64,000 nucleotides of DNA. Source: Candidatus Heimdallarchaeum endolithica. Lineage in GTDB: Archaea > Asgardarchaeota > Heimdallarchaeia > Heimdallarchaeales > Heimdallarchaeaceae. The DNA lies in the NCBI GenBank assembly GCA_021513715.1, contig CP084167.1:1024001-1088000 (forward strand). Reading direction: 5' to 3'. Under the pieces are notes generated by a model. It searched no databases. It was not told the origin of the DNA and saw only the letters and a list, made by a program, of their open reading frames with translations. Below, piece after piece: positions 11,716 through 12,080 of this stretch. Position numbers and translations under genes: made by a program. Position 1 is the stretch's first letter, and each line of letters opens with the position of its first letter.

Positions 11716-11821
11716 ATTTAATCACTGAAAGAAAACATTTTTCTGGCAATCTCCACCTTTCACTATTTAAAATTCCTTTTTTAAAGTATCTTCCAATCCC
11801 GGAGGATAGCCAAATTAGAAT
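11716..11821 (-). CRISPR. Candidate degenerate mini-array (pseudo-repeat, 39-nt spacer, pseudo-repeat)
   Basis: Minus-strand ATTCTAATTTGGCTATCCTCCGGGATTGGAAG resembles the array repeat at both ends (small stem plus 8-nt ATTGGAAG handle). It is followed by 39 nt and a weaker ATTGCCA...AGTGATTAAAT copy. Confidence 0.35.
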
Positions 11822-12040
11822 TAGTGCTTGTTTCACTGCGCCTAGCTGTTAGAATCCTTTTTTCACTAGTTAAGACACCTCTAACCTTTCTTCTGACTTA
11901 TGTTAAAGTGGAGGTGAAAAAAGGATGCTCGCTCCGGATCTTCCTGACGATCCCGATCCATTTCCTCCTTGAATAAGGAGGTTTAAGGAGCTTCTAAATG
12001 GAGCTCCTTGATTTCCTACAGACGGGTCGGAAATCCCTTA
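11796..12040 (+). ncRNA. Predicted structured RNA carrying a mini-ORF
   Basis: Locally GC-rich. Pairings: 11799-804/11932-937, 11854-866/11914-926 (13 bp perfect), and hairpins CCTCCTT-GAAT-AAGGAGG, AAGGAGCTTC-TAAAT-GGAGCTCCTT and GATTTCC-12nt-GGAAATC. TATA-like TATTTAAA at 11764 and a T-tract after 12040. Confidence 0.65.
11925..11972 (+). CDS. Mini-ORF MLAPDLPDDPDPFPP*
   Basis: Perfect SD GGAGGTGA (11910-11917) 7 nt before ATG. TGA at 11970-11972. Confidence 0.5.
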   Translation: MLAPDLPDDPDPFPP

Positions 12041-12080
12041 TTTATTTTTCTTTCCTTCTTTTTATCTTTTTCCCTTTTTG
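12039..12080 (+). terminator. Pyrimidine/oligo-T tract after three hairpins; probable terminator
   Basis: TATTTATTTTTCTTTCCTTCTTTTTATCTTTTTCCCTTTTTG directly after the last stem. Confidence 0.45.

Follow-up and report, generated by a model that had tools for sequence, protein, structure and literature searches.

A proline-rich micropeptide gene that probably belongs to a regulatory module of Asgard archaea

A mini-gene in the cas locus of Candidatus Heimdallarchaeum endolithica is probably the peptide gene of a two- or three-gene regulatory module of Asgard archaea, with a peptide signal rather than a CRISPR-guarded toxin RNA as its product. The unit is short, with a strong initiation signal and a terminator; it codes for an acidic, Pro-rich peptide that is conserved, and it travels with a double-Lrp protein, usually together with a second winged-helix protein. 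We hypothesize, at a probability of about one half, that the peptide acts in trans as a ligand of these regulators and tunes the module and the operon that it heads. We found no description of the peptide family or the module in the searchable literature, and to our knowledge almost nothing is known about the regulation of immunity in Asgard archaea.

The element and its surroundings

The window, by which we mean the whole 64,000-nt stretch analysed (contig CP084167.1, positions 1,024,001 to 1,088,000), comes from a closed, 3.33-Mb genome of 31% GC. The element is flanked by a csx1-type CARF-HEPN gene and by the previously unannotated gene of a 486-aa protein, which heads the type I-B operon. 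The cas locus also contains type III-A genes, the gene of a 494-aa helix-turn-helix (HTH) protein, adaptation genes and an array. The features used below are as follows, in window coordinates:

3663–10047, minus strand: type I-B cas8b (two genes), cas7b, cas5b and cas3 (context)
10159–11619, minus strand: 486-aa partner with a winged helix at the C-terminus (361–486); divergent from the peptide gene
11764–11771, plus strand: TATA-like box TATTTAAA, seen in the sequence, weak
11787–11808, no strand assigned: palindrome of 22 bp, located 138 nt 5′ of the start; either a candidate operator covering the transcription start or a 5′ RNA hairpin
11854–11866, plus strand: 13-nt complement of 11914–11926, predicted to occlude the start region in the window genome (pair probability 0.91)
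11870–11894, no strand assigned: second, everted, degenerate half-site copy, 13 nt apart; candidate second operator
11910–11917, plus strand: Shine-Dalgarno (SD) sequence GGAGGTGA, complementary to the 16S 3′ end
11925–11972, plus strand: micropeptide gene, 15 aa, MLAPDLPDDPDPFPP, stop TGA; family core D-P-x-P-x-P, 6 Pro, 4 Asp, Pro-Pro (PP)-stop
11964–11981, plus strand: hairpin 1, over the stop codon; not conserved
11983–12035, plus strand: hairpins 2 (11983–12011) and 3 (12010–12035), probable 3′ stability or termination structure; compensatory changes, G-U pairs favouring the plus strand
12037–12085, plus strand: T-rich tract, probable archaeal terminator, convergent with csx1
12086–13414, minus strand: csx1-type CARF-HEPN gene (context), convergent with the peptide gene
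13609–20580, plus strand: type III-A cas10, csm2-5 and cas6 (context)
20781–22265, plus strand: 494-aa partner, identified by profile match, with a Trp/Tyr-rich N-terminal domain and two Lrp/AsnC units; in other loci its gene and the peptide gene are directly divergent

The SD, the mini-ORF and the 3′ hairpins of the element are confirmed. The original prediction had described a TATA-like box, a perfect SD, a Pro/Asp-rich ORF with PP-stop and a T-tract, and all of these are present in the sequence; the TATA-like box is weak because its tract has 17% GC and the spacing is not kept in homologs. The genome contains only 28 copies of GGAGGTGA, and filtering all of it for an SD followed by a Pro-rich short ORF returned 11925–11972 as the sole ORF. 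The predicted GC-rich island is GC-rich only relatively, at 44% compared to 17% upstream, 22% downstream and 31% genome-wide. Folded against shuffled sequences, the plus strand has a z-score of −3.3 (0/200) and the minus strand one of −2.5. No second copy was found in the genome, in keeping with the predicted structured, single-copy plus-strand unit carrying a real, translated-looking mini-ORF, and the suggested Rfam check gave no match in the window at gathering score.

The pairings on which a translational switch had been proposed are mostly specific to the window. The 13-bp upstream complement does exist, but the segment it pairs with is limited to the SD's 3′ half, the spacer and the first two bases (AT) of the ATG; the full helix is not conserved in the three nearest homologs and has no significance across the family. 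The alternative CACCTC partner is present at 11876–11881 and retained in one of those three homologs, whereas pairing of the 5′ end with codons 3–5, likewise present in the window, keeps 3–4 of 6 pairs in them and is not conserved. All three tandem hairpins were found, but hairpin 1 retains 4 of 7 pairs in two of the homologs and is not conserved. A GGGUC-GAUCC pairing is present in 3/4 sequences and is no gauge of conservation, because GAUCC is dictated by Asp-Pro codons. Long-range 5′UTR-3′UTR pairing is significant in one locus only and not family-wide, and neither is anti-SD pairing.

Conservation was found in hairpins 2 and 3 and in the palindrome at 11787–11808, which is absent from the feature list of the original prediction, with 3 compensatory pairs among them (9/500 shuffles; no more than 4 sequences, which are related). 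Hairpin 2 has G-U pairs that point to the plus strand, and most family members have a stable 3′ region (z below −2.5). The comparison of homologs that had been proposed returned a conserved SD, a conserved peptide and compensatory changes in hairpins 2 and 3, but not hairpin 1 or most of the SD-sequestering pairings.

We also considered, and rejected, degenerate CRISPR repeats inside the element (the best 14–21 matches are at chance level) and a hammerhead core, whose resembling CUGAnGA motif is explained by Pro-Asp-Asp codons (CCAGAUGA in locus L023). On the minus strand of 11751–11781, 27/31 bases match the first codons of a cas1 gene elsewhere in the window's own genome (G000 3198258–88); this likeness has no counterpart in locus L021 and we therefore treat it as probably chance, or a relic.

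The peptide family and its partner proteins

The family is too diverged to have been picked up when 60 relatives were searched at the DNA level; three syntenic loci (L021, L023 and L042) were retrieved through homologs of the flanking proteins. L021 encodes the identical peptide with 5 synonymous and 0 non-synonymous codon changes, L023 differs from the window ORF by 8 synonymous and 3 non-synonymous changes (MFGPDLPDDPDPYPP), and the L042 peptide is MRRDPPEYPDDPDPVPP. The rare codons CCG (1.1 per 1000) and CTC occur singly and are synonymously replaced in L021, suggesting that it is the amino acids, not the codons, that count. These codon comparisons indicate that the peptide is under purifying selection.

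The family comprises 31 loci with 29 distinct peptides of 14–26 aa (e.g., MKGPIEFPPDDPEPWPP, MFSPGGDPDEPEFWPP, MQRPPDDPFPIPPWD and MDPEEWLPDDPDPWP), spread over 26 GTDB Asgard genomes (from three families) plus three further assemblies; the loci are kin to each other and the counts are not independent. Every member is preceded by a GAGGTG-like or GGTGA SD. The core D-P-x-P-x-P is present in 23/29 peptides and PP in 28/29 (one lacks it), and 13/29 end in PP-stop; the overall composition is 40% Pro and 21% Asp+Glu. The window peptide is acidic and hydrophilic, with no hydrophobic stretch or export leader. When 400 Asgard genomes were scanned for the peptide pattern regardless of context, 19 hits were obtained compared to 5 for the reversed control pattern; 15 of the hits fall at module loci already known, and one more is next to tandem Lrp genes. 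Searching viral, genome and metagenome collections with peptide patterns yielded either no hit or chance hits lacking an SD, a start or the module. In G083 (L186), a variant peptide, MVLKSTPEPDWPPDDDWPWPIDG, lies upstream of a distant double-Lrp gene on the same strand.

Nearly all loci with enough sequence have an SD-led, Pro- and acid-rich peptide at a double-Lrp gene. Usually the peptide gene diverges from an operon in which the 494-aa gene precedes the 486-aa gene; in the window and its close relatives, the three module genes are shuffled through the cas locus with the peptide gene kept intact. In 7 loci (the window, L021, L023, L042, L076, L086 and L087) the next gene is convergent, so the peptide gene is no leader there.

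The double-Lrp gene is the tighter partner: the 486-aa gene is absent from two carriers of the peptide (G010 and G030), and a frameshifted double-Lrp copy (L137) has lost the peptide. The profile of the 494-aa protein matches in 40 Asgard genomes, and Asp44, Trp68, Tyr82 and Pro85 of its N-terminal domain are invariant even in distant members. In WW, SH3 and EVH1 domains, polyproline is read via aromatic stacks. Some double-Lrp homologs have no peptide that we could find nearby (L135, L136, L143, L147 and L149); in L135 (329–5078), three tandem double-Lrp genes are followed by an unknown 515-aa gene, again with no peptide found. Around 15 distant double-Lrp loci, we saw no export-tagged forms of the peptide. 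Viral contigs yielded no double-Lrp protein.

A profile of the 486-aa protein retrieved 31 relatives and gave matches in 18/400 Asgard genomes. Its AF2 model (pLDDT 88.6) shows an alpha/beta fold plus the C-terminal winged helix, which matches an ORC winged helix with Z 8.0–8.4 and an rmsd of about 3.1 over 91–95 residues. Residues 1–360, searched as part of the full-length model, matched no solved fold; an MJ0711-like cluster (TM 0.59 by target) and CorA (E 0.14) came up as weak leads. R90, E188, R238, Y289, Y303 and R305 are invariant.

The palindrome lies at −136 to −144 from the start codon in most loci of the window's own family, with a lineage-specific sequence. In five genomes it is present at the peptide promoter and almost nowhere else (single or near-single copy). 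The everted second half-site pair often follows it and is clearer in L042, L076, L086 and L090. The palindrome could serve as an operator or, in the RNA, form a 5′ hairpin.

Small Zn-ribbon genes (~100 aa) lie directly 3′ of the peptide gene in L092, L132, L133, L134, L144 and L150, and related Zn-ribbon genes follow the regulator operon in L090–L095.

CRISPR-Cas neighbourhoods and the comparison with CreTA

The original prediction saw in the element a candidate CreT-like RNA that safeguards Cas. Cas genes or arrays of several types adjoin 15 loci (the window and 14 others), but roughly half of the loci lack neighbouring cas genes (~15 by blastp against the Cas proteins of the window genome, some on short contigs). 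The neighbours at cas-free loci are AAA_15 ATPases, small Zn-ribbon genes and metabolic genes. At the genome level, using profiles for Cas7, RAMP and Cas1, four genomes with an intact module (G012, G016, G017 and G026) had no match over cut-off to PF05107, PF01905, PF03787 or PF01867; these genomes are 84–92% complete and gaps in the assemblies are possible.

As a CreA guide, we looked for a degenerate repeat plus a spacer whose positions 1–5 and 7–11 match the toxin promoter beside a PAM. Among 266 spacers there were 0 seed matches, compared to a control mean of 1.13, and a handle-plus-seed scan of four loci gave only scattered, low-complexity hits, although a very degenerate repeat could escape it.

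For comparison we used the published definitions of CreTA (PMC8501985; bioRxiv 10.64898/2026.06.02.729485). The proline-codon CreT of the P. aeruginosa type I-F CreTA (bioRxiv 10.64898/2026.06.02.729485) shares with our element a strong SD, a Pro-Pro-stop mini-ORF, a hairpin and a type I cas locus. However, its ORF has 15 nt, whereas the Asgard ORF has 14–26 codons with a conserved acidic/aromatic motif; furthermore, in the Asgard family PP-stop is not invariant, no CreA was found, the partners are proteins and the module also occurs without cas genes. The tRNA-sequestering haloarchaeal CreT of type I-B (PMC8501985) likewise has an SD, a start codon, a mini-ORF and a stem-loop near cas8b, but the Asgard ORF lacks consecutive rare codons, CCG and CTC give way to synonymous codons in its nearest homolog, and no guide with seed and TTC PAM was found.

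By these comparisons the element is not a CreTA member, though its anatomy resembles that of a proline-codon toxin. The CreT reading is not supported: selection acts on the amino acids, the search for a CreA guide found none, half of the loci are cas-free, and the constant partners are two DNA-binding proteins and not Cascade. A genuine CreTA module, with repression by Cascade and a CreA guide, would fit the position inside a type I-B locus and the SD, mini-ORF and hairpin, yet we hold it to be extremely improbable given the spacer result, the intact module in genomes with no detectable Cas7, RAMP or Cas1 and the rare codons that are not kept.

Other observations were made on the cas loci. In the window, cas8b (8074–10047, minus) consists of a 517-aa and a 138-aa gene; L021, L023, L042, L062 and L086 have it divided in the same way, so this is a conserved two-gene form rather than a sequencing error. 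Between the double-Lrp gene and cas1, the window (22422–23357, plus) carries a DUF2797 gene with a Zn-finger-like stretch, as does L151. The arrays of the window's genome (G000) at 2085610, 2105179–2118062, 3195707 and 3207074–3207893 show two further repeat types, with isolated or degenerate repeats near cas6, and one spacer matches its own genome over 34 nt at 3794–3827. In L023 (20263–20376), a degenerate two-repeat mini-array lies at the end of a CARF gene; it is a candidate crRNA-like regulator, for which no target was found within the locus.

Proposed role of the peptide and competing explanations

We propose that the palindromes in the promoter of the peptide gene are binding sites of the regulators and that the active product of the gene would be the peptide and not the RNA. 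The target of the peptide would be the double-Lrp protein, at its aromatic N-terminal domain, or else the second protein, and the resulting feedback loop would set expression of the module and of the operon that it heads. The regulators often head cas operons; in the window the operons headed would be the type I-B and III-A cas operons. One could speculate that a Pro-dense, slowly translated peptide reports translation capacity or viral shut-off.

Several findings favour the peptide as a ligand: selection falls on amino acids (L021 and L023), nearly all 31 loci lie at a double-Lrp gene, 16/19 hits of the context-free scan (vs. 5 for the reversed pattern) lie at such regulators, 7 loci are convergent, the frameshifted L137 copy has no peptide, the N-terminal residues Asp44, Trp68, Tyr82 and Pro85 are invariant, and the promoter palindrome is fixed in position, lineage-variable and nearly unique per genome. 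Against this, several double-Lrp homologs have no peptide nearby, a toxin model would equally predict that a regulator lies next to its target gene, an RNA hairpin is another possible reading of the palindrome, and the kinship of the loci limits the weight of their counts. The effectors described for Lrp proteins are amino acids and small metabolites (PMC2995911), which also counts against a peptide ligand. The wider claim is that an Lrp/AsnC-family regulator reads a ribosomally made Pro-rich peptide in place of an amino acid, and that this circuit was repeatedly co-opted to control other defence genes as well as CRISPR-Cas operons of several types; we put it forward as tentative and somewhat doubtful.

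Peptide signalling of a related kind is known from the RRNPP systems of streptococci (Rgg/SHP, ComR/ComS and the leaderless SIP-RopB). These share a tiny peptide gene adjacent to or divergent from its regulator and, as proposed here, a ligand-receptor feedback loop; they differ in that their regulators are HTH-TPR proteins, whereas the Asgard partners are double Lrp/AsnC and winged-helix proteins, and the Asgard peptide is acidic, Pro-rich and without export leader, with a ligand role that we infer. The archaeal Lrp/AsnC regulators (Pyrococcus PH1519/FL11 and LrpA; PMC2995911) share the HTH + RAM units of the 494-aa partner and palindromic sites in a divergent promoter; in contrast, the 494-aa partner consists of two fused units with an extra Trp-rich domain, and the linked molecule is a peptide gene rather than an amino-acid pathway.

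The main competitor, which we consider unlikely but well worth weighing, is a ribosome-stalling toxin repressed by proteins: the two DNA-binding proteins would silence it in an addiction or abortive-infection module. The PP-stop makes stalling, which the original prediction had also raised, plausible. The SD, short ORF, PP-stop and hairpin are those of the Pseudomonas proline-codon CreT (bioRxiv 10.64898/2026.06.02.729485), terminal diproline stalls ribosomes in the CMV UL4 uORF2 (PMC9648851), PP is nearly universal in the family (28/29), the operator-like palindrome lies near the likely transcription start, and defence neighbours are frequent (cas operons and AAA_15 ATPases). However, PP-stop is found in only 13/29 peptides and one has no PP, the acidic/aromatic residues conserved over at least 10 codons exceed what a 15-nt CreT ORF needs, and one or two 490-aa proteins make a heavy antitoxin. 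UL4 uORF2 is likewise a short ORF with PP-stop, but it acts in cis on a downstream ORF (PMC9648851), whereas the next gene in the Asgard window is convergent.

That orientation also weighs against a cis-acting leader or stall sensor controlling a downstream gene through translation-coupled termination, which we regard as improbable. Many loci do have a co-directional gene after the 3′ hairpins, such as cas6 in L088, L096 and L148 and the small Zn-ribbon genes in L092, L132, L133, L144 and L150, but the peptide is kept where the next gene is convergent (the window and six other loci), the downstream genes have no common function, and the 5′UTR-3′UTR and anti-SD pairings are not significant family-wide. 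The convergent csx1 and the convergent next genes in L021, L023, L042, L076, L086 and L087 do not fit a leader-peptide attenuator, and a type I toxin-antitoxin mRNA does not fit a hydrophilic peptide and those same pairings, which are not significant. Lrp-fold enzymes exist, e.g., the siroheme decarboxylase NirDL/AhbAB, and the two large proteins could instead be processing enzymes for a modified-peptide precursor. The gene is short and precursor-like with a conserved C-terminal core, and the invariant residues of the 486-aa protein (R90 through R305) could form a pocket; nevertheless, both proteins carry classical DNA-binding folds, the gene maps lack a transporter, a protease or a known RiPP enzyme, and the 486-aa gene is missing from G010 and G030, making this reading very improbable in our view.

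A ligand role for the peptide would establish a new archaeal receptor-peptide pair and, for Lrp proteins, a new class of effector; a role as stalling toxin would extend proline-codon toxins to archaea under protein control. In G014, the palindrome has a second copy (L171 4838–4859) where the gene of a caspase-domain protein (PF00656) begins, whose N-terminus is hydrophobic. This gene is located between two Lrp-like genes and may be a further member of the regulon.
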